Part shown: positions 3,974-57,508 of the stretch, piece by piece
How positions within the stretch are numbered: position 1 is the stretch's first letter
Layout of the letters: each line of letters starts with the position of its first letter
Source of the DNA: an uncultured virus (IMG/VR IMGVR_UViG_3300033075_001711)
Taxonomy: Duplodnaviria; Heunggongvirae; Uroviricota; Caudoviricetes
Virus record (IMG/VR): IMGVR_UViG_3300033075_001711
Direction: 5' to 3' (one strand)
DNA: 64,000 nucleotides
Notes under the pieces: generated by a model
What the model was told of the DNA's origin: nothing
Database searches by the model: none
The model's input: only the letters and a program-made list of their open reading frames with translations
Translations under genes and position numbers: made by a program

Positions 3974-4016
3974 ACTGTATAGTATAAAATATTTTTCTTT
4001 TTAGAAAGGGATTTTT

Positions 4017-48178: not shown

Positions 48179-48721
48179 ATGGCATTAAAAGTTCTTTATA
48201 GAGGCACAGGAAACTCCCTTTGTGATCTCGATTTTACTTTTACCAATGATGCTGATACCGACCGAGATAATTTACTCTCCGTAAAAGGTGGAGCAATTAT
48301 GGCATTAGTAGGAGATCAGTTACTTGGTATGTGTGATCCTGCCAATACAAACGCTACTTTTCCTGCCGCTGGCGTAGGAATTGGAACTCGCCCATTTGGA
48401 GTTTTAATTAACCCAGCCGCTGGTCAAGCACATGAAAACTATCCAAATATTGCATCAGGTAAAGCTCCTGTTTTCGATAATTGGGGCTGCTACACTGTAA
48501 CTGAAGAAAATCTTGCAGGTCCTGTAGGAAGCGTTTGGTCAGGTGTTGTTGCTGGTGATTATGTTTATTGTGGTTGTGATGATCTCGCAGGAAAATTCAC
48601 TCCAGTTAAACCTTCTACTGACGGTGGTTCAGAAGATATTTCTGTAGGCACAGTTATTAAAGTCCCAACCGCTGCTGATCCAACCCTTATGTTTAAACTT
48701 AATATAATGGAGATTAACTAA
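48179..48721 (+). CDS. putative capsid decoration/cement protein
   Basis: G/A-rich beta protein (RPFGV, ASGKAPV, GDYVYC...GKFT, VGTV..VP) directly upstream of MCP. Confidence 0.6.
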   Translation: MALKVLYRGTGNSLCDLDFTFTNDADTDRDNLLSVKGGAIMALVGDQLLGMCDPANTNATFPAAGVGIGTRPFGVLINPAAGQAHENYPNIASGKAPVFDNWGCYTVTEENLAGPVGSVWSGVVAGDYVYCGCDDLAGKFTPVKPSTDGGSEDISVGTVIKVPTAADPTLMFKLNIMEIN

Positions 48722-48722
48722 T

Positions 48723-49616
48723 ATGAATTCCATGCAAAAATTAAGTGCTGATCAGAAACAAGCCATTCTAAATGAGCTTATGGGTTCAGCCGCAGGTCGT
48801 GTTAAAATTGCAAGTTCACTCATTCAACCTCTCCGGTTCCGAAGAGATTATACCTCAGTCGCTCGTAAAGCATTTATTGTAGAGCAACTTCCAGACGGAG
48901 CCCAGAGCATGTATGACAAAGACCCAGATGTCTTTGCATATATTGTAGGCGAAGAAGGCGAAAATATCGTAACTGTAGTTAAAACTACTCGTTTCGTTAT
49001 TCCAACATTTGAAATTGCATCTAACCCTGAAATTCCTCTTTCTCAGCTCAAACAACGCCGGTTTGATATGATCGAAAGAGCCATCGACAAATCAAAATCC
49101 GAAATTCAAGCAATTGAGGACGAGTACGCTTTCGGTGTTATGGATGCCACCGCTGATGGTGCTGCTGGCGCAGATCCAGATGATGATTTCAAAAACGTGG
49201 ACATTCCAGTTACTGCTCCACTAAACTCTTCAATTTTAGCAGATGCGTTTGCTTCAATTGAACGACATGATCTTCGTGTAGCACGAATTTTCATGAATGC
49301 TCGGGATTATACCGACATCAGAAAATGGGGCCGCGATACATTAGACTTTGAAACTCAACAGTATCTTTTAAATACTGGTCTGCTCGCACACGTTTGGGGT
49401 GCCCAGATTATAGTATCTAGAAAAGTACCTGTTGGAACAGTTTATGTCTGCACAGAGTCTGAGTTCTTTGGACGAATCCCTGTTCGTACAGAACTTACAG
49501 TAATTTCAGCAGATGATCCTAGGAATCGTCTGATCGCCTTTAGTCTCTTTGAGGACATCGGGGTAGGGGTTCATAACCCACGTGGGTTGGTTAGAATGCA
49601 AATCAGTCGCGGGTGA
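48723..49616 (+). CDS. major capsid protein (HK97 fold)
   Basis: Last gene of the head module; codon bias of a highly expressed gene; EIASNP, IQAIED, FMN..D..DI, WGAQIIVSRKVPVGTVYV, terminal NPRGLVR. Confidence 0.85.
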   Translation: MNSMQKLSADQKQAILNELMGSAAGRVKIASSLIQPLRFRRDYTSVARKAFIVEQLPDGAQSMYDKDPDVFAYIVGEEGENIVTVVKTTRFVIPTFEIASNPEIPLSQLKQRRFDMIERAIDKSKSEIQAIEDEYAFGVMDATADGAAGADPDDDFKNVDIPVTAPLNSSILADAFASIERHDLRVARIFMNARDYTDIRKWGRDTLDFETQQYLLNTGLLAHVWGAQIIVSRKVPVGTVYVCTESEFFGRIPVRTELTVISADDPRNRLIAFSLFEDIGVGVHNPRGLVRMQISRG

Positions 49617-49638: not shown

Positions 49639-49663
49639 AAAAGCCGAGAAATCGGCTTTTTTT
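49639..49663 (+). terminator. rho-independent terminator after MCP
   Basis: aaaagccga-gaaa-tcggctttt plus T tract. Confidence 0.85.
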
Positions 49664-49728
49664 GTCTCCAAACATTTGCCTGATTATTTGTATGTTAGAT
49701 CATAACAGATTTAATAAATAAAGGAATT

Positions 49729-50145
49729 ATGGGAAATCAGTTTGGAGTTGACTATCCTGTTCTTTTAGATAAAGAATATTTAAAAAAACTATATGATTCA
49801 AAATTAACTGGAACTCAAATATCTAAAATAATTGGGTGTTCAGATGCCAGCGTCAATTTATATTTAAAAAAATATGGAATAACTAATCGGACGTATTTTG
49901 AAAATTCTAAATTAGGTCATGCTGTAAATGATAATTTAATTTTAAATGATTATTCTTTAAAGGTGATTGCGGGATGTTTATTAGGAGATGCTACTTTTAG
50001 AAAAGGAAAAGGAAATTCTGGAGTTTCTATATCTAAAAACAATATAGGAGAAGATCATATAAACTATGTTGCTAAAATATTGTTTGGAGATTTTTGGAAA
50101 AGTAGGATATTCACAACTAATGAAAAGTATATTTTATTTCCATGA
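49729..50145 (+). pseudogene. truncated LAGLIDADG homing endonuclease with N-terminal HTH
   Basis: KEYLKKLY..QISKIIGCS..SV..YLKKYGI HTH, first motif IAGCLLGDA, stops before any second motif. Confidence 0.6.
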
Positions 50146-50188
50146 AAAACAATTCCTAGTAAAGCTAAAAAACAATAATCAAAAAACT

Positions 50189-50222
50189 AGAGTGTTTTTA
50201 GTTTCCCAAAAACACTCTTTTC
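50189..50222 (+). terminator. terminator-like hairpin
   Basis: agagtgttttt / aaaaacactct followed by ttt. Confidence 0.5.
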
Positions 50223-50284
50223 ATTTTTAGACTTCGCCGCTTTTTATGTAGAGGCTAGGTGACACTTTAATTTTGGAGACACCT

Positions 50285-51223
50285 ATGTCTGAAAATGAAT
50301 TAAAAAAATGTAGAACTTGTAATTTAGAATTTCCACAAGATAATTTTAGAAAAACAAAAAATAGAAAAAAAGAAACTGCCTACCATACTCAATGTAAAAA
50401 TTGTGACAAAATAGATTATCAAAATAACAAAGAAAAAATTAAAGCAAGATCTAATAAATATAGATTAGAAAATAGAGATAAAATAAATGCTCAGAAAATG
50501 GAATCTTATTATGCTAATCATGAAGAGAATAAAGAAAAAAATAACAAGTATAGTGCTGAACATAGAGAGGAAATAAAAGAAAGAAAAGCAATTTTCAGAG
50601 AAAATAATAGGGAACGGTTACGCCAAGAAGGGCGAGATAGGTATGCTGCTAATCCAGAGAAATATATTCAAAAAGCTAGAGAGTATTATAAATCCAATAG
50701 AGAAGATGTCTTAAAAAGGCAACGTGAGTATAACAAAAAAAGAAGGGCTAAAATCTCAGATGCAAAAGCAATTTACTATAGAAATAACAATGAGTCTATA
50801 AAATTAAAAAGAAAATTGCACAAACCAAAAGCAAATGCTAGAAAAAGAGAACGTTGGCAAACAGATATTAAATATAGACTAATGCTTTCAATAAGAAACA
50901 GAATAAACATTTCAGTCAAAACAAATTCTCCAATAGGTTCTGACTTAGAAGGTTTATTAGGATATAAAATTGATGATCTAATCATGCATTTAAAAACAAC
51001 GTTACCTGAAGGTGTTACGTGGGAAGATTATGTATCAAGAAAAATAGCAATACATATAGATCATATTAAACCTTTATGTAAATTTACAATTAAAAACATC
51101 CATGATCCTGAATTGAAAAAAGCGTGGGCATTAGAGAACCTTCAGTTATTACATAAAATAGACAATTTAAAAAAATCTAGTAAATATGAAGAAGTACAGG
51201 AACAAAATCCAGAATTAAATTAG
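50285..51223 (+). CDS. HNH endonuclease with N-terminal Zn finger and basic repeats
   Basis: CRTC...CKNC, repeated Y..N.E helices, HIDHIKP...AWALENLQLL...DNLKK; ATG at 50285 after GGAG. Confidence 0.8.
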   Translation: MSENELKKCRTCNLEFPQDNFRKTKNRKKETAYHTQCKNCDKIDYQNNKEKIKARSNKYRLENRDKINAQKMESYYANHEENKEKNNKYSAEHREEIKERKAIFRENNRERLRQEGRDRYAANPEKYIQKAREYYKSNREDVLKRQREYNKKRRAKISDAKAIYYRNNNESIKLKRKLHKPKANARKRERWQTDIKYRLMLSIRNRINISVKTNSPIGSDLEGLLGYKIDDLIMHLKTTLPEGVTWEDYVSRKIAIHIDHIKPLCKFTIKNIHDPELKKAWALENLQLLHKIDNLKKSSKYEEVQEQNPELN

Positions 51224-51282
51224 CTAGAACTGTGTGTATAGTATCTCAGGCGATAGGTAGTGACAGTTAATTTAAGGTAAAA

Positions 51283-52215
51283 ATGAGCTTGGATTTGAAC
51301 GTATTGTTAGAGATTTGTAAATATCGGATGAACAATAATTGCACGTATTTCGATGCTGTTAAAACATTTGGATTGCAATTTGGGCCTGATGTTTTGAGAT
51401 CTAGAATTAAAAAAGAAATTCCTGAGTTTAATTGGAATGCGCGTGTATGGGAAAAATCTATAAACTATCAAAATTCTGATACTGTTCATCGAACAGTAAT
51501 AATATCAGATGTTCATTATAATATTAGGGATGTTAATGCTGTAAATGCTGTGACTAATTTTATAGTGGAGACAAAACCAGATGTTGTTGTTTTGTTGGGT
51601 GATATTTTTGATGGTGAGTTATTAAGTACTTATGCAAAAGCAAAGAAAAAAGTAGTTGTTGATATTGGGGAAGAGATTACACAAGCCAGGGATTGGTTAA
51701 ATCTTTTGTGTGAAAATGCTAAAAGGGTTATATTTATACAAGGTAATCATGAAGAGAGATTATCTAGAACAGAAAATCGGGAACCAGGATTACCTAAAGA
51801 AGCATTAGAGTGGAGAAATTTATTTAATGTTTATAAAGTATCGGATAAATTAGAAGTTTTTGATCCACGGAATACTAGAGATGGCTTTTTAAGAATAGGT
51901 TCTGCGGCTTTAATGCATGGCGTTAATTATGGGACGCATCAGGCATATGTAAATATAACTAAAGAGTATGGGCATGAGAAATTAGTAGTTCAGGGACATT
52001 CGCATACTCCGGCTTTATATTATTGGAAAGGGAATGTAGGTGTAGTGAACGGGCATTTATCAAATCCTATTGAGCAAAGCTACATACATAATCCTAAATG
52101 GACTGCTGGATTTACTATAATAGAGCAATTTAATAATTTTGAAATGTTTAATGTTTATATGGTAGCTGTAACTAACGGAATGTTTAGTTATGGTGGGAAA
52201 TTATATAAAGGGTAA
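51283..52215 (+). CDS. calcineurin-like metallophosphoesterase
   Basis: ISDVH, LGDIFD, GNHE, MHG, GHSH. Confidence 0.85.
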   Translation: MSLDLNVLLEICKYRMNNNCTYFDAVKTFGLQFGPDVLRSRIKKEIPEFNWNARVWEKSINYQNSDTVHRTVIISDVHYNIRDVNAVNAVTNFIVETKPDVVVLLGDIFDGELLSTYAKAKKKVVVDIGEEITQARDWLNLLCENAKRVIFIQGNHEERLSRTENREPGLPKEALEWRNLFNVYKVSDKLEVFDPRNTRDGFLRIGSAALMHGVNYGTHQAYVNITKEYGHEKLVVQGHSHTPALYYWKGNVGVVNGHLSNPIEQSYIHNPKWTAGFTIIEQFNNFEMFNVYMVAVTNGMFSYGGKLYKG

Positions 52216-52217
52216 TT

Positions 52218-52772
52218 TTGATTTACAGAGCAAAAGATATAAGAATTATATTATTTAAATTTTTGAAAGAAGAGTATAAAGACATCTATATAATGGAGGA
52301 GAAAGAAATTTATAAATCCATTGTAGATATCTTTTGTATTAAAGGGAATAATTTATTAGGGTTAGAGATAAAATCGGATACTGACTCATTAAAAAGGTTG
52401 CCGAGACAAGTAAAAAATTATGATAAGATTTTTGATTTTAATATTGTTGTAATAACAGAGAAGTGGGTTGAGAAAGTAAAAGATATTTTACCTAAACATT
52501 GGGGAATTTTTTTAATTAAAGAAGATAGTTGTGAAATTATTAAATCTCCTTTAGTTAATCCTAATAGAGATGAGTATAAATTAAGTTGGTTATTATGGAA
52601 ACCAGAGTGTAGAGAGTTATTAAAAAGAAATAATTTATTGCGTGGTTTTTCATATAAAGCTAAAAAGTATTTAAATAAACGTATAGCTAGTAAAATAAAA
52701 ATAGATAATATAAAAGAGTATTTAATTGAATGTTTTTTAAAAAGAGATTGGGATAAGGTAAAGAGATTATGA
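52218..52772 (+). CDS. sce7726-family / MmcB-like PD-(D/E)XK protein
   Basis: IVDI, LEIKSDTDSLKRLPRQVKNYDKIFD, LPKHWGI, LLWKPE. Confidence 0.7.
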   Translation: MIYRAKDIRIILFKFLKEEYKDIYIMEEKEIYKSIVDIFCIKGNNLLGLEIKSDTDSLKRLPRQVKNYDKIFDFNIVVITEKWVEKVKDILPKHWGIFLIKEDSCEIIKSPLVNPNRDEYKLSWLLWKPECRELLKRNNLLRGFSYKAKKYLNKRIASKIKIDNIKEYLIECFLKRDWDKVKRL

Positions 52773-53104
52773 ATGATTTAAAACGATGTAAAGTTTACTA
52801 TTTAGGAATAGCTAAAGAATTTAAAGACATTATGAGATTTTATGATGTTAATTCTATTTTTCCGTTTGATTTCAATGCTAGAGTAGAATCTGTATTTTGT
52901 GGTAAAGATACTATTGGTCTTTTTAAACAGTTGAGGGATTTAAAATCTCAAAAAATAGAAGGCTCTTTTGGTAATATTGATGGAATAGATTTTTTTGTAA
53001 ATGAAAATTTACCTCCGGACACATTTATGGTGGTATCAAATGAATTATATAGGAATCAAAAATCTTTTGGGCCTTTTGATAAGTTAGATATTATTTGGGG
53101 ATAA
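52769..53104 (+). CDS. small protein weakly resembling a capsid A-domain
   Basis: FKDIMRF...GSFGNIDGIDFFVNENLPPDTFMVVS versus MCP YTDIRKW...GLLAHVWGAQIIVSRKVPVGTVYVCT. Confidence 0.45.
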   Translation: MNDLKRCKVYYLGIAKEFKDIMRFYDVNSIFPFDFNARVESVFCGKDTIGLFKQLRDLKSQKIEGSFGNIDGIDFFVNENLPPDTFMVVSNELYRNQKSFGPFDKLDIIWG

Positions 53105-53110
53105 TAGATA

Positions 53111-53740
53111 ATGTATAAAATAGAATATAAAGCAACTCCAAGTAGTATTTCAGAATTAGCAGATGCTTTTGCTATAATAGAAGAACATAACTATAGGGTT
53201 GCAAAACTTACAATGAATAATTACACTGAAAAAAATTTAATTTTGCCTCTGTATAATGGATTTTCTTCAGGAGATAGTTTTTGGGGTGCGGATATTTATA
53301 TAGATGACACTTTAATGAATTATGAGGTTATATTAGAAAGTGAAAAATATAAACATCTTGAATTTAGAAAAAACATTAAAGGTTTAAGATATGTAGATTT
53401 ATCTGGTAAATATTATTTGACATCAGAAATATTTGATTGTAAAAAATTAACAGATTTTTTAGATGGGTTATGTCCTATTGAAAATCAATGTAGTTATAGG
53501 ATATCTTATTTTTGTTTAAATGCTAAAACACATAAAATGCTTAAAGAAAATTGTCCTTCTATATATGATAACGATTTAATTGTTTTAGGTTCTCATGTGT
53601 TTATAGATAATAGTTTAGAAACTGGACATGTAATATTTGTAAGTGATTCATTTACGGATGAAATTTTTGCAGAAAATATCAAGTTAGACCTTGATATTAG
53701 TGTAAAATTATGTGAGAATAAAAATTATGTTAGAAGTTAA
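53111..53740 (+). CDS. tandem MCP A-domain-like protein
   Basis: LADAFAIIEEHNYRVAKLTMN versus MCP LADAFASIERHDLRVARIFMN; WGADI versus WGAQI; second diverged copy in the C-half. Confidence 0.75.
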   Translation: MYKIEYKATPSSISELADAFAIIEEHNYRVAKLTMNNYTEKNLILPLYNGFSSGDSFWGADIYIDDTLMNYEVILESEKYKHLEFRKNIKGLRYVDLSGKYYLTSEIFDCKKLTDFLDGLCPIENQCSYRISYFCLNAKTHKMLKENCPSIYDNDLIVLGSHVFIDNSLETGHVIFVSDSFTDEIFAENIKLDLDISVKLCENKNYVRS

Positions 53741-54017
53741 TTTATTTTATGATAATGGATTTGTGGAAAAAACAAGTCCAGCAGAATTTATGTTTACTAG
53801 TTTTAATTTTGTGGAAAAAGATTTAAAACTTAGAGTAGATGAAATTAAACTGTCTCAAGATTTTTATATTAAATTATTTAATTCTTTGTTAGAATATCCT
53901 AATTCTTATTATCAAACATTCCCAGAAGAATCTTTTATGGATGCTATGCTGCTGGGAGCAGATGTTATATTAGATGATAGAGATGTAGAAGCTATAACTT
54001 TAATTTGTGATGATTAG
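53727..54017 (+). CDS. single MCP A-domain-like protein
   Basis: SFNFVEKDLKLRVDEIKLSQDFY...MLLGADVILD...ITLIC versus MCP AFASIERHDLRVARIFMNARDY...HVWGAQIIVS...VYVC. Confidence 0.55.
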   Translation: MLEVNLFYDNGFVEKTSPAEFMFTSFNFVEKDLKLRVDEIKLSQDFYIKLFNSLLEYPNSYYQTFPEESFMDAMLLGADVILDDRDVEAITLICDD

Positions 54018-54047
54018 AAAAAATTTAACTTTTTAAATAAGATTTGT

Positions 54048-54773
54048 ATGGAAAATAAAAAATGTAATAAATGTAATGTGATATATGAAGTTTCAAATTT
54101 TTATAAAAGAGGCAAAAGAAAATCTGGAGACATTACATATACTTGTTGGTGTAAACAATGCTGGTCTGCACACTATAAAAACTATGTTACAAATAATTTA
54201 GATACTAGAAATAAATATTTAAAAAAATATAAGCAGACAGATAAATATAAAAATTCCGTTTTAAAAAACAATTTAAAAAGAAAAGATAAAATAAAAGAAT
54301 ATTACGAACTAAATAAAAAAAGAATATGGTTTGATAAATATTATTTTAAATATAGAAATGACTCCACTTTTAGATTGAAAGTTAGAATGTCAAACAATGT
54401 CCGTAGTTTTTTACAAAAAGGTAAAAATTGGGGCTCTTGGCACAAATTAGTTGGATATTCATTGCTAACTTTAAAATCTCATTTAGAAAATCTTTTTTTA
54501 CCTGGAATGTCTTGGGACAATTTTAAAAGAGGTGGGTGGTCAATAGATCATATTCAACCTTTATCTTCTTTTAGGTATGTTCGACATCAAGATAATGAAT
54601 TTAAAAATGCTTGGAAATTACAAAATTTAAGACCTTTGTGGGAAAAAGATAATTTATTAAAAAATTCAATTTGGCAAGGTAAAAAAAGAAAATTTCAATT
54701 TGTTAATGTACCATACATATTCTCTTTTACAGAAAACATTAAGTTAATTTCAAAAGGAATTTTATATCAATGA
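54048..54773 (+). CDS. HNH endonuclease (paralog of 50285..51223)
   Basis: CNKC...CKQC, LVGYS...LKSHLE..F.PGMSWDN, SIDHIQP...AWKLQNLRPLW..DNL.K. Confidence 0.8.
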   Translation: MENKKCNKCNVIYEVSNFYKRGKRKSGDITYTCWCKQCWSAHYKNYVTNNLDTRNKYLKKYKQTDKYKNSVLKNNLKRKDKIKEYYELNKKRIWFDKYYFKYRNDSTFRLKVRMSNNVRSFLQKGKNWGSWHKLVGYSLLTLKSHLENLFLPGMSWDNFKRGGWSIDHIQPLSSFRYVRHQDNEFKNAWKLQNLRPLWEKDNLLKNSIWQGKKRKFQFVNVPYIFSFTENIKLISKGILYQ

Positions 54774-55903
54774 TTAAAAAATTATTTTTATGCTATTTAA
54801 TATCTATTTTAATAGCATGTAATTCTTCTCCTCCATGTAATGTTACAAAAAATTGTGGGGGGGGGCCTACTCCAACTCCTGTTACTATGAGCATAACTGT
54901 TCAAGGAAACAGTATTTTTGTAAATGGTAAGAAAACATTTATGCGAGGCTATTCAGGGTTTGGTTCTTGTTATAATGCGGAACCTAAAGAATCTTGGGAT
55001 GCCTGGTTTTCTAAATTAGAAAAAGCAGGAGTTAATTATAGTAGAGTGTGGCTAGTCCCGATCCCAGATTCGTGGGTGCCTCAAGGATATGTGAACATGC
55101 AAAACACATTTTTAAAAATGCCAAATGGCAAATATGATTTAACAAAACTAAATCCAAAATTTGTAGAAAATGTTCATAATGTTTTAAATGCTGGGGCTAG
55201 GCATGGAATTGTTTTTCAAGTGTCATTAGCAGACAAGGTTTTAGGGAAATATCCTGAAGATTTTAAAACACATCCTTACAATAAAAACAATGGTGGATTT
55301 ATTACTCCTAATTCAAATGGGCAAGGTTGGCCTCAAGGGTGGGAGCTTCAATATGATCAGGATTGGAAAAATTTAGCTGATTTATATATGAGTGTATTAT
55401 CTATCCATACCAACGTTTTAATAGAAGTTATTAATGAGCCCGAGATGGGAAAAGACAATAAATTAGGTACACCAGAACAAATAAATCGTTGGCATATGAT
55501 GATGTTGACATATTTAAGAAATAAATATCCTGGAGTTAAATTAGTTATTAGTCCTGTAAGACTTTCGGGTTTAAAATTTGTTCCTGACATTAATTTACCT
55601 GCAGATATTATTTCAGCTCATGGGGCTGGGTTTTTACCGGATACTCCTAAAGGAAGATATTTTACAGATGCCGAAATGATATCTGAATGGAAAGCGTGTT
55701 TGAGTAAAATGTTAGGAAAACCAGTTATTTGTGATGATGATGGATTACCACGAGAAAGAAATGATAATAAAATTGTCATGAATTGGAGAAAATTATCAGA
55801 AAAGATAGGTTTTGCAGGTTTTCAACATAGAGATGATGAATTTGTTCCTCCTGGAAGTGTTGTAGATGATGAGGCAATTAAGGTAATAGGCGCTAATTAT
55901 TAA
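54770..55903 (+). CDS. lipoprotein, glycoside hydrolase clan GH-A (GH5-like) TIM barrel
   Basis: Signal peptide with lipobox LIAC, PTPTP linker, AGVNYSRVW, EVINEP acid/base motif, KPVICDDDG. Confidence 0.7.
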   Translation: MIKKLFLCYLISILIACNSSPPCNVTKNCGGGPTPTPVTMSITVQGNSIFVNGKKTFMRGYSGFGSCYNAEPKESWDAWFSKLEKAGVNYSRVWLVPIPDSWVPQGYVNMQNTFLKMPNGKYDLTKLNPKFVENVHNVLNAGARHGIVFQVSLADKVLGKYPEDFKTHPYNKNNGGFITPNSNGQGWPQGWELQYDQDWKNLADLYMSVLSIHTNVLIEVINEPEMGKDNKLGTPEQINRWHMMMLTYLRNKYPGVKLVISPVRLSGLKFVPDINLPADIISAHGAGFLPDTPKGRYFTDAEMISEWKACLSKMLGKPVICDDDGLPRERNDNKIVMNWRKLSEKIGFAGFQHRDDEFVPPGSVVDDEAIKVIGANY

Positions 55904-55930
55904 ATAAATAAAAAATTCTTAATTAGTAAT

Positions 55931-55972
55931 AATGGTAAATTGAACATGGTTTAATTTACCATTTTATTTTTT
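55931..55972 (+). terminator. hairpin between accessory and structural genes
   Basis: aatggtaaatt / aatttaccatt followed by T-rich run. Confidence 0.5.
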
Positions 55973-55986
55973 ATAAGGAAAATATA

Positions 55987-56745
55987 ATGAGTGCTCTTGT
56001 ACAAGAAATGGTTCGAGTTATGCATAACGGAGCGTATATTCCTTCTAGCAACGATGATTATGTGTTTCGCACATCCCCCATTTATTTATGGGATTTAGGG
56101 AATAGGGCTCAGGATACTATAAATAAAAAAGGACAATCAACATATCTATCCTATAATGGAGAAATGCCTGGAAGTCCAAGATACACAAATATAACATTTA
56201 ACAAAAAAGGTGTAGATTTATTACCTACTGGAGAAGTTGAGCAAAGTTTAGATTCGGGTGTTATTGAAAAATTAGAGGCTCGTGGTTTAGTTAAAAAAAT
56301 GCCTGCATTTGAGACTTATTTAACTTCAGCATATTCTGGTGGAACAACACTAACTGTTGGATCAACTACTGGAATGCCTGCTACTCCTAGAGTAGTAGAG
56401 ATAAATGGGATATATCGAAGAAGAGTTGCTAGTTTTACAGCTACTACAATTGTAATGGATTCAGCAATTTCTGGAACTTTTGATGTTAACACTAAAATCA
56501 CATTTCTTAGATCTACTGTAGAAACTAAATTAGCTTCAAATTATATTACTGGTGCCACTACAATGGTGGTTGAATCTAGAGATGGTTTAGATGGGTTAAC
56601 TGGAGTAGCTTTAAATGTTTATATGGGCGGATATTCCACAACACTAGATTCTGGTGCTACTATTAGTTCTACTACTATTGATTTAACTTCTGGTATTGCA
56701 GCTACATTACCAAAAGGCACACAAGTTTTAATAACCGTATTTTAA
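55987..56745 (+). CDS. putative virion protein, paralog 1 of 3
   Basis: RVMHNG..IYLWDLGNRAQD..GQS domain plus two T/S-rich beta repeats. Confidence 0.65.
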   Translation: MSALVQEMVRVMHNGAYIPSSNDDYVFRTSPIYLWDLGNRAQDTINKKGQSTYLSYNGEMPGSPRYTNITFNKKGVDLLPTGEVEQSLDSGVIEKLEARGLVKKMPAFETYLTSAYSGGTTLTVGSTTGMPATPRVVEINGIYRRRVASFTATTIVMDSAISGTFDVNTKITFLRSTVETKLASNYITGATTMVVESRDGLDGLTGVALNVYMGGYSTTLDSGATISSTTIDLTSGIAATLPKGTQVLITVF

Positions 56746-56761
56746 TTAAGGAAATAATTAA

Positions 56762-57508
56762 ATGTCTCAAAAATTACGAGTAATGCATTTTGGTGAATTT
56801 GGATCAGTTACAGATGACCAAGCATTAAAAACAAAAACAAATCCTATTTATTTAGATGATGTTGGTAATAGATCATTAGATAATATAGATACTAGAGGTC
56901 AATCTCAATATATTACTATAGATGGTTCTGTTCGACCTACTTCTACTGCTTATGGAAAAGAAAAGCATCCTAAAAAAGTAGTTGATTTAGTTCCAACTTC
57001 TGAAGTTCTTTTAAGTTCTTGGAAAGGAAATCTTAAAAAATTACGAGATCTCCAACTAATTAAAACTGAAGATGTTTTTGATGTTGTAGTAGCAACTGCT
57101 TATACTGCTGGATCTACTTCTTTAGTAGTGTCTTCTGCTACAGGTTTTCCTTCAACTGGAGCTGTTGAAATAGGAGAAGTAATTGTTAGATATACTGCGG
57201 TCACATCAAATACCTTAACTTTAGTTACTGGAGGTTTTGGAGATAGCTTTGATGTTGGAACTAGAGTATTAGTTCATAGGTCTTTTGGTGAAACTAAATT
57301 AGTTTCAACTTACACTTCTTCTGGTGTAGAAACTACTTTTAGTGTTGAAACGGTAGGAGGTTTAGCTTCAACTGGAACAGTTTACGCTGATAATAAAAGT
57401 AAAGCTTATTCTGCTATCAACACTTCTTTAAATACTATTACTTTAAGTTCAGCATTTTCTTCTGGAACACAATTTATTTCAGGAACTAGAGTATTTGCAA
57501 CTAGTTAA
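56762..57508 (+). CDS. putative virion protein, paralog 2 of 3
   Basis: RVMHFG..IYLDDVGNRSLD..GQS domain plus two repeats. Confidence 0.65.
   Translation: MSQKLRVMHFGEFGSVTDDQALKTKTNPIYLDDVGNRSLDNIDTRGQSQYITIDGSVRPTSTAYGKEKHPKKVVDLVPTSEVLLSSWKGNLKKLRDLQLIKTEDVFDVVVATAYTAGSTSLVVSSATGFPSTGAVEIGEVIVRYTAVTSNTLTLVTGGFGDSFDVGTRVLVHRSFGETKLVSTYTSSGVETTFSVETVGGLASTGTVYADNKSKAYSAINTSLNTITLSSAFSSGTQFISGTRVFATS

Follow-up and report, generated by a model that had tools for sequence, protein, structure and literature searches.

Tandem copy of the capsid A-domain segment

The window analysed here, a stretch of 64,000 nucleotides from an uncultured virus (IMG/VR IMGVR_UViG_3300033075_001711), carries a gene built from two tandem copies of one segment of the phage's own major capsid protein (MCP), the A-domain segment. 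We tentatively read this gene, ORF 53111 (53111..53740, + strand, 209 aa), as a domesticated partial MCP paralog whose tandem A-domains would act as a soluble mimic and occupy the partner of the A-domain, a possibility to which we give a little less than even confidence.

The parent is the MCP gene at 48723..49616 (+ strand), which encodes a protein of 297 aa with HK97 fold and of the phage G gp27 type. It matches PDB 6wkk_A with an E-value of 1.1e-61 and phrog_2522 with 1.4e-50, the match to PF05065 (E 1.2e-4) is below the cut-off, and 1620 relatives were found. A split or intron-interrupted MCP gene was ruled out because the protein aligns with 6wkk over its full length. Judging from the alignments, residues ~165–252 of this protein are the source of the copied segment. 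A replaced 3' part of the MCP gene was sought by means of identity profiles of the halves 1–164 and 165–297, whose mean identity to the relatives is 0.58 and 0.71, respectively (correlation −0.02), and these gave no usable signal.

ORF 53111 is composed of two units. Unit 1 (53135..53386, + strand; residues 9–92) is collinear with MCP ~161–257, and unit 2 (53447..53683, + strand; residues 113–191), containing six cysteines, is a diverged duplicate of unit 1. Residues 9–40 share 18/34 identities with MCP 165–198 (BLASTP E 9e-7), and the features from which a first-pass annotation of the sequence had derived the homology of the N-terminal half, namely a block of 14/21 identical residues, the pair WGADI/WGAQI and the ESE motif, are all visible in the translations. 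The similarity that it reported at the DNA level likewise holds, with 27/33 positions identical between ORF 53111 and the MCP gene. In a tblastn search of the MCP over the whole window, ORF 53111 was the sole match with E < 1 besides the MCP itself (E 2.2e-4). The profile-profile comparison suggested by the same annotation aligned the MCP alignment with the alignment of the two units over 75 collinear columns, covering MCP 165–252 (hhalign probability 90%, E 1.4e-6); a second hhalign result for ORF 53111 against the MCP gave 91% over 29 columns. Unit 1 matches 121/121 MCP-family proteins, the best being P0069 (32% over 100 columns, E 7e-8). An A-domain HMM picks out ORF 53111 among 11,644 ORFs (E 2e-4), and in the two-unit profile MCP ORFs account for 81/86 non-self rows. 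The C-terminal half had also been described as a second copy, which is confirmed by the comparison of unit 2 with unit 1 (Smith–Waterman z 7.7, a score reached by 0/1000 shuffles; 25% over 79 residues in BLASTP), and no match was obtained for unit 2 directly against MCP-family proteins. Altogether, the BLASTP, hhalign, family-match and shuffle statistics rule out a chance similarity between ORF 53111 and the MCP.

The segment is unevenly conserved. In unit 1, the first helix and strand are close to the MCP consensus, the remainder has diverged to about 20%, and the MCP-invariant stretch DIRKWGRDxLDxE is missing. With respect to the phage G gp27-type MCPs (6WKK; phrog_2522; PF25209), unit 1 keeps the consensus LADAFAxIExH..RVA...MN and WGA, and has ~85 of their ~295 residues. 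The A-domain units of about 80–105 aa are collinear only with MCP 165–252; as the alignments reach MCP ~161–257 only and the ORFs comprise 96–209 aa, they do not cover a complete HK97 fold. A search of HK97-clan Pfam families at E up to 0.1 and up to 10 gave no match for any ORF or half. By its alignments, ORF 53111 is a fragment pair and no shell subunit, with N-arm, E-loop, spine helix and P-domain missing, and the earlier description of a free segment devoid of N-arm, E-loop and P-domain applies to both of its units.

We also considered structure predictions for ORF 53111. For the alignment-free model of the ESM Atlas, 6/9 listed neighbours are capsid-family clusters and both halves are covered; for this two-domain protein the TM scores by query amount to 0.29–0.35, all of them under the bar. 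The AlphaFold2 single-sequence model has a pLDDT of 40.6, and a VIA-wide search with this low-confidence model returned an unrelated fold as the best match (Z 5.0), as well as four HK97 rows (7k5w, 7qof, 9ocb, 7bcv) at Z 2.7–3.0 over residues 108–180, which is within noise. A complex prediction of MCP and ORF 53111, run without controls, gave a score of 0.00 and a mark of 0.32, which speaks neither for nor against binding.

Coding state and the two adjacent ORFs

ORF 53111 is directly flanked by ORF 52769 (52769..53104, + strand, 111 aa) and ORF 53727 (53727..54017, + strand, 96 aa; 101 aa from the GTG at 53712). The chance of staying open is 4e-10 for ORF 53111, 1e-5 for ORF 52769 and 5e-5 for ORF 53727, and the 210 open codons of ORF 53111 compare with a longest run of 111 codons among 2000 shuffles. 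All three ORFs show GC1 > GC2 > GC3, like the neighbouring genes. The stop of gene 52218 and the start of ORF 52769 overlap in an ATGA, and the start of ORF 53727 overlaps the end of ORF 53111 by 14 nt. Open frames, codon-position GC and overlapping starts and stops identify the three ORFs as real genes. A programmed frameshift fusing ORF 53111 and ORF 53727 was discarded, as it needs a +1 shift and the stop lies 6 nt before the GTG.

The three ORFs have a GC content of 24–27%, compared to 43% for the MCP gene, which agrees with the AT-rich operon proposed before, but a similarly low GC content prevails across most of the window. A promoter-like motif belonging to the cluster could not be substantiated, with 45 promoter-like sites found and 45.4 expected. 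In run X15, which is RNA by guess and may be DNA, contigs fell on the MCP gene and on three short pieces elsewhere, none of them on the three ORFs, a pattern that says nothing about their expression. Separately, we noticed that genes 4017, 28996 and 51283 are closely preceded by TGTATAGTAT; with a total of 8 occurrences versus 8.4 by chance, this is a hint only.

Homology searches with the ORFs in collections of 5.8 and 1.84 billion proteins returned only the query protein itself. No related loci were found in IMG/VR and JGI metagenomes, a DNA search of GenBank phages gave no match, and PADLOC and NCBIfam yielded nothing for the three ORFs, the PADLOC result having no bearing on a decoy role.

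While up to four copies of the segment had been counted in the first-pass annotation, two of them, the units of ORF 53111, are solid; one further copy depends on a single fold look-up and another on a marginal motif. For ORF 52769, the claim of a copy by sequence found no support, as pairwise alignments, hhalign, shuffles and profiles revealed no similarity to the MCP, the units or MCP-family proteins; one ESM Atlas fold look-up stands for it. The Atlas's own model (pTM 0.63) has capsid-family clusters in 6/9 of the matches listed, with TM by query of 0.52–0.57, all under the bar. Foldseek searches of PDB and BFVD with the low-confidence AlphaFold2 single-sequence model (pLDDT 46.7) gave nothing at E ≤ 0.001 and a capsid-free top 50, a VIA-wide search with it reached a best Z of 3.0 with no capsid, and a PDB sequence search with ORF 52769 and with the unit profile returned nothing relevant. 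From this fold-level hint, ORF 52769, with a possible A-domain-like fold, may be a further, much more diverged copy.

ORF 53727, a very acidic protein (pI 4.05), had been thought to follow the same pattern, which the comparisons do not uphold. Read from 53712 or 53727, it has no pairwise alignment with the MCP, an hhalign E-value of 0.16 and no MCP-family match. Its comparison with unit 2 gave z 2.6, a score reached by 25/1000 shuffles, and hhalign against the unit profile gave E 0.021, across the GADVILDD motif only. On this marginal likeness, ORF 53727 is perhaps an additional, much more diverged copy.

Consequently, the cluster might be read more narrowly: only ORF 53111 would be MCP-derived, and ORF 52769 and ORF 53727 would be unrelated small proteins, a view against which we lean without much conviction. 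Significant sequence similarity is lacking between either ORF and the MCP or the units, as well as between the two ORFs, and the AlphaFold2 model of ORF 52769 is without a capsid match; moreover, the ATGA overlap links ORF 52769 to gene 52218, with whose sce7726-like product it could, e.g., form a translationally coupled pair. On the other hand, there are the capsid-family rows of the Atlas model, and the best hhalign matches of both ORFs, insignificant as they are, land on the same MCP strand, WGAQIIVS. In addition, a G-x-x-hydrophobic-x-hydrophobic-D/N/S motif recurs at a similar position in all four units, and both ORFs adjoin the proven copy.

A strain-variable island behind the MCP gene

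The proposed position of the cluster outside the MCP transcription unit and in an accessory island was corroborated. An intrinsic-terminator-like hairpin lies 3' of the MCP gene at 49640..49666 (+ strand; 8-bp stem, GAAA loop, T run), where it had been noted before. Its stem, AAAGCCGA/TCGGCTTT, followed by the T run, is read from the letters, though the list of the terminator scan omits it. Behind the hairpin comes a broken LAGLIDADG-type homing endonuclease gene (49729..50230, + strand) consisting of the overlapping frames 49729–50145 and 50066–50230, which matches phrog_9759/8446 and, over residues 78–117 only, PF03161 (E 0.0041). The left flank of the cluster continues with an HNH/endonuclease VII-like homing endonuclease (50273..51223, + strand; phrog_2340, 7091, 1035), a calcineurin-like metallophosphoesterase (51283..52215, + strand; PF00149 E 6.1e-13, phrog_221 E 1.1e-26) and a sce7726-family protein (52218..52772, + strand; NF033832 E 3e-39, above the cut-off; phrog_984; PADLOC model 'cll' E 1.5e-18). 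On the right flank, a second HNH/endonuclease VII-like homing endonuclease (54048..54773, + strand; phrog_1035 E 3.2e-10) is paralogous to the first (32% over 109 aa, E 6e-15). The last island gene (54770..55903, + strand) encodes 377 aa with a lipoprotein-like N-terminus and no family, and a terminator-like hairpin is found behind it at 55931–55963. At a distance of 3.5 kb from the MCP gene, ORF 53111 follows the LAGLIDADG remnant and is enclosed by the two HNH paralogs; a partial copy of the MCP gene thus sits beside endonuclease genes, as in gene-fragment duplications associated with homing endonucleases.

The material originates from activated-sludge metagenomes, and pieces of the cluster occur at 100% identity on contigs of three other sludge runs. 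Loose contig ends abound between roughly 49.7 and 54.9 kb: the sludge contigs of the three runs break at 54894, inside the last island gene, and upstream of 53110 one contig diverges from the window. The island of the cluster is strain-variable and bracketed by paralogous HNH genes. For the genes from 55987 onward, counterparts were sought in 80 related loci and none was detectable, and therefore synteny cannot set the borders of the island.

Related loci and the possible origin of the copies

Stand-alone copies were present in 2/81 MCP neighbourhoods. The search of related genomes for free A-domain ORFs, which had been put forward together with the initial claim, turned up one independent case among 80 related neighbourhoods. 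In this 618-kb relative (L078), a 146-aa stand-alone MCP piece (HMM E 6.9e-12) lies 6 kb behind the MCP gene and comes after three LAGLIDADG genes. Like ORF 53111, it is a small gene behind the MCP gene in which the A-domain segment of this MCP family is copied. In contrast to ORF 53111, it is a single unit in which the opposite half of the domain is preserved (YADLRQFSRDILDIE...GLQATLWG) and the first helix is lost, and beyond the common parent it shows no detectable similarity to the ORFs of the window. The L078 piece has three homologues with 45–76% identity (family P0122–P0125), and members on separate contigs retain 74–76% identity. A C-terminal CxxC...CxxC ribbon is found in 3/4 members, and the addition of a zinc ribbon to the L078-type protein suggests reuse.

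Intact LAGLIDADG_2 genes follow the MCP gene at a distance of no more than 3.5 kb in 33/56 related loci. The paralogs were probably born by endonuclease-linked rearrangement: break repair linked to homing endonucleases at the 3' flank of the MCP gene would have led to a partial duplication of this gene, and the partial copy would then have been duplicated in tandem and diverged fast. A segmental amplification of anti-defence loci driven by SegB is already described in PMC13096335. As most endonuclease-bearing loci are without a stand-alone copy, the account of the origin is circumstantial.

The same surroundings raise the question of whether the copies have any role in the capsid. They might be a by-product of homing endonucleases, either a passenger of the cassette or a small alpha/beta fold reused elsewhere, an explanation that we consider rather unlikely but worth serious attention. 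It would fit the position of the island between two paralogous HNH genes and its start at a broken LAGLIDADG gene, the frequency of LAGLIDADG_2 genes behind the MCP gene, the similar layout in L078 and the ribbon of the L078-type protein. The lack of orthologues in the protein searches and the loss of the MCP-invariant surface stretch from unit 1 also agree with it. However, a by-product does not readily account for three adjacent open frames with gene-like codon-position GC in DNA of 25% GC (odds 4e-10 to 5e-5), for a tandem-duplicated unit with both copies in frame, for a helix-strand block at the MCP consensus next to a remainder at ~20%, or for the retention of the L078 family at 74–76% identity on separate contigs.

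Comparison with known A-domain proteins and capsid paralogs

The closest described analogue of the copies would be the Family 4 'A-domain encapsulins' (PF08967 DUF1884; 2PK8), presented in PMC8346489 as HK97 A-domain-only proteins of ~100 residues; this is a likeness only, with the Pfam match absent. As outlined in that article (Andreas and Giessen 2021, PMC8346489), their function is unknown and a structural or binding role was proposed, including self-assembly and complex formation. It places them in hyperthermophilic Euryarchaeota and two Bacteroidetes genera, with 95 operons in which they mostly stand behind an enzyme gene, and names the A-domain's two principal helices as the inter-subunit interface (PMC8346489). 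The units of the window are similar in size (~80–105 aa) and in consisting of the A-domain only. They differ in being phage-encoded, orphan and tandem, in their derivation from a phage G-type MCP and in their setting amid homing endonuclease genes; besides that, DUF1884 was not matched by any of these ORFs at E-values up to 10. The two-gene operon type of Family 4, with a hydrogenase, OsmC, GAPDH or DeoC partner in a thermophile, was also not found, the partners in the window being the metallophosphoesterase and the sce7726-like protein.

Among phage proteins, T4 gp24 is the vertex paralog of gp23, a full-length HK97-fold subunit that is built into the capsid. The A-domain copies of the window resemble it as phage-encoded paralogs of the phage's own MCP but differ as single-domain fragments. 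In the main articles of the literature surveyed, we found no described stand-alone A-domain or capsid decoy of a phage, and no phage-encoded MCP-domain decoy against MCP-sensing defence systems.

The copies might serve the assembly of the phage's own capsid or its virion, as a chaperone, an interface cap, a plug or decoration at the capsomer centre, or a modulator of the geometry of a very large capsid. The cluster is situated in the head module, with the MCP gene on one side and structural-looking genes following on the other; a scaffold candidate (46270) and a protease (44289) are further genes of the window. Of the two helices assigned to the inter-subunit interface in PMC8346489, one is the part that is best preserved here, and the same article proposes self-assembly and complex formation for Family 4 proteins. 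Against this role, such copies are missing from 79/80 related MCP neighbourhoods and have no orthologues, so that they are no core assembly factor. Furthermore, a terminator separates the MCP gene from the cluster, the neighbours are endonuclease, phosphoesterase and sce7726-like genes, and the island varies by strain. Overall, we regard an accessory function in the capsid as unlikely.

A target in other phages was considered as well. Free A-domains could enter or cap the capsomers of co-infecting relatives or satellites and poison their assembly. A strain-variable accessory locus beside homing endonucleases, which are themselves elements of inter-phage competition, would be a suitable place for such a weapon, and non-productive co-assembly of PhuZ is described in PMC13282480 as isolating related jumbo phages. 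Yet the kept helix has 53% identity to the phage's own MCP and 57–63% to those of relatives, over 27–34 residues. Being equally like own and foreign MCPs, it does not tell self from rival, which weakens the idea of a poison for rivals; as it is no closer to foreign MCPs, a poison would act on the resident capsid too, save for protection by timing or dose. We consider a weapon against competitors highly improbable.

Potential function as a soluble A-domain mimic

We return to the reading of ORF 53111 as a domesticated, soluble A-domain mimic. Because the lattice-locking N-arm, E-loop and P-domain are absent, the encoded proteins would not polymerise, and they would instead occupy a partner normally bound to the capsomer-forming surface. 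The likeliest partner would be a sensor of the host immune system that recognises free MCP, for which the ORFs would be competitors or decoys; the second likeliest would be free MCP itself, with the ORFs as a shield or an assembly modulator. A role of free A-domains as decoys or competitors is plausible. The coat protein is one of the principal molecules by which a phage is recognised by bacteria.

Avs7, Avs8 and Avs10 are presented as MCP-sensing defence in bioRxiv 10.64898/2026.01.04.697583, which cites CapRel and Lit alongside. These sensors are host proteins unrelated to the ORFs and indicate what a free A-domain could titrate. According to the same preprint, Avs7 also contacts the P-domain and the E-loop of the MCP (bioRxiv 10.64898/2026.01.04.697583), and the ORFs of the window are without both. 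A further point against the mimic is the loss of DIRKWGRDxLDxE from unit 1, by which much of the surface presented to a sensor or to an adjacent subunit would go unmimicked; the kept residues are maybe those of the fold core. A bound A-domain could trigger an Avs-type sensor just as well as block it.

In its boldest form, the proposal would amount to a new anti-immunity device, in which diversified, non-polymerising A-domain copies jam or soak up sensors of the Avs7/8/10 type while the MCP accumulates unseen. The tandem pair and one or two single copies would then imitate the ring of A-domains or the interface of the free monomer, and the repeated birth and amplification of such copies in huge phages would be driven by homing endonucleases next to the MCP gene. 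We judge this extended scenario to be improbable as a whole.

If true, a phage that mimics its own structural protein by means of the recognised, shell-incompetent domain would represent an undescribed counter-measure. Even without a decoy role, the locus would illustrate how one domain can split off from a structural gene and go on to evolve as a small gene in its own right, whose birth appears tied to homing endonucleases found behind the capsid gene in most of the relatives examined (33/56). Here, the window offers a tandem two-unit form together with an evident endonuclease setting. Small size and easy expression make these proteins amenable to a direct test of whether they bind the MCP or MCP sensors.

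Homology of ORF 53111 to the major capsid protein

ORF 53111 (53111–53740, 209 aa) carries two units related to one segment in the major capsid protein (MCP; 48723–49616, + strand, 297 aa) encoded in the same window. The first-pass annotation had aligned its N-half with the MCP, and this alignment proved correct: residues 9–40 match MCP residues 165–198 with 18/34 identities (BLASTP, E 9e-7), the corresponding DNA block is identical to the MCP gene at 27/33 positions, and ORF 53111 is the sole secondary MCP match below E 1 in the window (tblastn, E 2.2e-4). Comparison with an alignment of 35 MCPs gave 91% probability over 29 columns (hhalign). The likeness extends beyond this first block, as the N-half matches 121/121 MCP-family proteins, with a best match of unit 1 (residues 9–92) to MCP residues 161–257 (100 columns, 32%, E 7e-8). 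Against the window's own MCP the N-half reaches 34.7 bits, and its best match elsewhere 41.2 bits; the copy is therefore either old or acquired from a relative. The C-half (unit 2, residues 113–191) resembles the N-half (25% over 79 residues; Smith-Waterman z 7.7, a score matched by 0/1000 shuffles) and, judged by sequence, is a genuine duplicate of it, as had also been proposed. A two-row profile of both halves is collinear with MCP residues 165–252 (75 columns, E 1.4e-6).

The parent protein belongs to the same MCP type as phage G gp27 (PDB 6wkk_A, E 1.1e-61 over residues 4–290; phrog_2522) with more than 1,600 relatives, many from contigs of 200–600 kb. A long helix (~105–142) comes before the copied segment and PF05065 is matched over residues 68–293; by this collinearity with the HK97 fold, and with its usual domain borders, residues 165–252 form the axial domain (A-domain). 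The segment's size also agrees with that described for A-domain-only proteins of ~100 residues (PMC8346489). Unit 1 retains the first A-domain helix and the next strand near the family consensus, together with the WGA motif, and lacks the family-invariant stretch between this helix and strand.

Two further candidate copies

Up to four copies had been claimed, including ORF 52769 (52769–53104, 111 aa) and ORF 53727 (53727–54017, 96 aa; 101 aa from the GTG at 53712). The two in ORF 53111 stand by sequence; of the others, one is possible and one is weak. ORF 53712/53727 gave no alignment with the MCP. It scores z 2.6 against unit 2, which 25/1000 shuffles reach, and its match to the unit profile (hhalign, E 0.021) covers GADVILDD only, so that its likeness to the units is marginal. 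ORF 52769 showed no similarity to the MCP or the units in any sequence comparison run. The top but insignificant profile matches of both ORFs land on one common MCP strand, and a similar G-x-x-hydrophobic motif occurs at a comparable position in all four units, which is weakly consistent with further copies.

All fold evidence comes from alignment-free ESM Atlas models (pTM 0.41 for ORF 53111, 0.63 for ORF 52769). For each of the two, 6/9 of the nearest structures listed fall in clusters whose annotation names capsid families (PF25209, PF05065, PF07068, PF17236 and PF13252), all under the tool's family-naming bar. These neighbours cover each half of ORF 53111 separately; the capsid neighbours of ORF 52769 have TM values by query of 0.52–0.57, likewise under that bar. 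Single-sequence AlphaFold2 models were poor (pLDDT 40.6 for ORF 53111, 46.7 for ORF 52769), and fold searches with them returned nothing significant. An unnamed cluster of 124 viral proteins of 86 aa ranks first among the structural neighbours of ORF 52769 as well as those of the C-half of ORF 53111, with TM by row of 0.64 and 0.69. Going by these models, phages may commonly encode small free-standing proteins with this fold.

On every internal test the three ORFs are real genes. With a stop-codon probability of 0.098 per codon at local composition, the chance of an open frame is 1e-5 for ORF 52769, 4e-10 for ORF 53111 and 5e-5 for ORF 53727, and the longest open run in 2000 shuffles of the 1249-bp region was 111 codons, compared with 210 observed. 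Their codon-position GC drops from position 1 to 3 like that of neighbouring genes, the last codons of ORF 53111 extend over ATG 53727, and the proteins are acidic (pI 4.05–5.4).

Genomic context and strain variation

The window belongs to a 195,833-bp contig of an AT-rich phage (21–32% GC in most 1-kb bins) with no DNA-level match among GenBank phages; activated-sludge and bioreactor metagenomes from seven studies contain DNA nearly identical to it. The + strand carries all but one of the 72 predicted genes, with the replication genes in the left half and, from ~38 kb, a head module ordered terminase, portal, protease, Glu/Lys-rich scaffold-like gene, 180-aa gene and MCP. The 180-aa gene directly upstream of the MCP gene (48179–48721) has no family and is MCP-adjacent in 35/80 related loci (~30% identity); its position makes the product a candidate for a decoration or accessory role in the head.

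Behind the MCP stop come a hairpin with a T run and then a broken LAGLIDADG gene (49729–50230, +); a second terminator-like site lies at 50189–50218. The nine co-directional genes that span 50273–55903 contain as sole terminator-like site a weak 5-bp stem within ORF 53727. They include an HNH/endonuclease VII-like gene (50273–51223, +) followed by a metallophosphoesterase gene (+), which heads the operon of the A-domain ORFs past a spacer at 51235; a sce7726-family gene (52218–52772, +; NF033832, E 3e-39, and PADLOC model 'cll', E 1.5e-18); the three ORFs; a second HNH/endonuclease VII-like gene (54048–54773, +), paralogous to the first (32% over 109 aa, E 6e-15); and, last, a 377-aa lipoprotein-like gene (54770–55903, +). 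The HNH pair flanks the phosphoesterase gene, the sce7726-like gene and the A-domain ORFs, and the bracketed segment may be a composite mobile cassette. The stop of the phage-borne sce7726-like gene overlaps the start of ORF 52769 (ATGA), coupling the two translationally; the papers listed as naming this family describe no function for it. A promoter-like motif of its own had been ascribed to the operon, but promoter-like matches do not rise above chance level and gave no confirmation. The sequence TGTATAGTAT occurs in short intergenic spaces at 3976, 28983 (one mismatch) and 51235, directly upstream of the helicase, primase and phosphoesterase genes; as its window-wide count equals chance, it does no more than hint at a non-late promoter common to these genes.

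In contigs of three further sludge runs, pieces of the cluster recur with zero differences (53159–53521, 53403–53762, 53745–53954 and 53754–54020), against ~1% difference in the MCP gene and ~5% at 54894–56200. Because many contigs break between 49.7 and 54.9 kb with unlike continuations, one immediately before 53110, this island is a strain-variable accessory region, its details uncertain at the low assembly depth. At 54894, inside the lipoprotein-like gene, the match of contigs from three sludge runs of different studies starts exactly, with unlike sequence before and ~5% divergence after; this position marks a recombination boundary of the island that they have in common. Directly behind lie tandem paralogs of no known family (55987–56745 and 56762–57508; 38% over 203 aa, E 7e-33), for which the 80 related loci hold no counterparts.

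Distribution and possible origin of stand-alone A-domain genes

The three ORFs are orphans, only the sequences themselves being found among 5.8 billion clusters and 1.84 billion representatives (HMMER, full read), and IMG/VR and JGI metagenomes gave no related loci. In 80 IMG/VR loci that surround related MCP genes (1 Mb; 11,644 ORFs including the window), an A-domain HMM matched the 81 MCPs and only two more ORFs, namely ORF 53111 and a 146-aa ORF (L078:16872–17312, E 6.9e-12) on a 618-kb GC-rich phage contig. The latter follows its MCP gene at a distance of 6 kb, past three LAGLIDADG genes, and consists of the spine-helix end and the A-domain, of which it retains the other half (…RDILDIE…GLQATLWG), with a CxxC…CxxC ribbon at its C-terminus. 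It has three homologues (45–76% identity), one without the ribbon. Together with ORF 53111, these sequences show that stand-alone A-domain genes arose at least two times within the clade of these MCPs and can be kept. A core role in assembly is unlikely because the distribution is sporadic. Separately, in one related locus (L030:6034–6081), 16 residues of the MCP C-terminus recur ~300 nt behind the MCP gene (62% identity, E 0.39), possibly a remnant of a 3'-end duplication and too weak to count.

Among 56 related huge-phage loci scanned (56/57 loci with enough flank, 150/153 candidate ORFs; some loci are near-duplicates), 33 have LAGLIDADG_2 genes in the 3.5 kb downstream of the MCP gene, and the MCP 3' flank therefore looks like a clade-wide homing-endonuclease hot spot. 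The window's broken LAGLIDADG copy occupies the same place. These genes are often the immediate next gene after the MCP, and some carry a fused DNA methylase or ParB-like domain. Repeated breaks and repair at this flank would be a simple way to generate partial duplications of the MCP gene, and endonuclease-driven segmental amplification of useful loci is documented for T6 SegB (PMC13096335). We infer such an origin for the A-domain copies; however, most endonuclease-bearing related loci lack an MCP fragment, which counts against it. Comparison of the two MCP halves gave no sign that the 3' part had been replaced.

Possible function

Lacking N-arm, E-loop and P-domain, the three proteins would be unable to join the lattice. 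The two main A-domain helices are described as the capsomer inter-subunit interface (PMC8346489), and Avs7, Avs8 and Avs10 reportedly clasp precisely this interface on free MCP (bioRxiv 10.64898/2026.01.04.697583). The most economical reading is a soluble, non-polymerising A-domain mimic that would occupy a partner of this surface. The partner could be a host sensor, making the mimic a competitor or decoy, or free MCP, making it a shield or modulator. The earlier suggestion that rival phages' capsid assembly is poisoned loses weight, since the helix that is retained fails to distinguish resident from foreign MCPs. A role as passenger or re-used scaffold is a serious rival to the soluble mimic.

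The nearest described kind are the Family 4 A-domain encapsulins, cellular, ~100-aa, A-domain-only HK97 derivatives reported as of unknown function (PMC8346489). The window ORFs have this architecture in common with them, but neither the Family 4 Pfam model nor its genomic context matches, and they are thus an analogue rather than a member. The literature search turned up no description of phage-encoded stand-alone A-domain genes or capsid-domain decoys. Altogether, half of the claimed copies are unproven, the homology between ORF 53111 and the MCP is solid, and the idea of a capsid mimic is testable.
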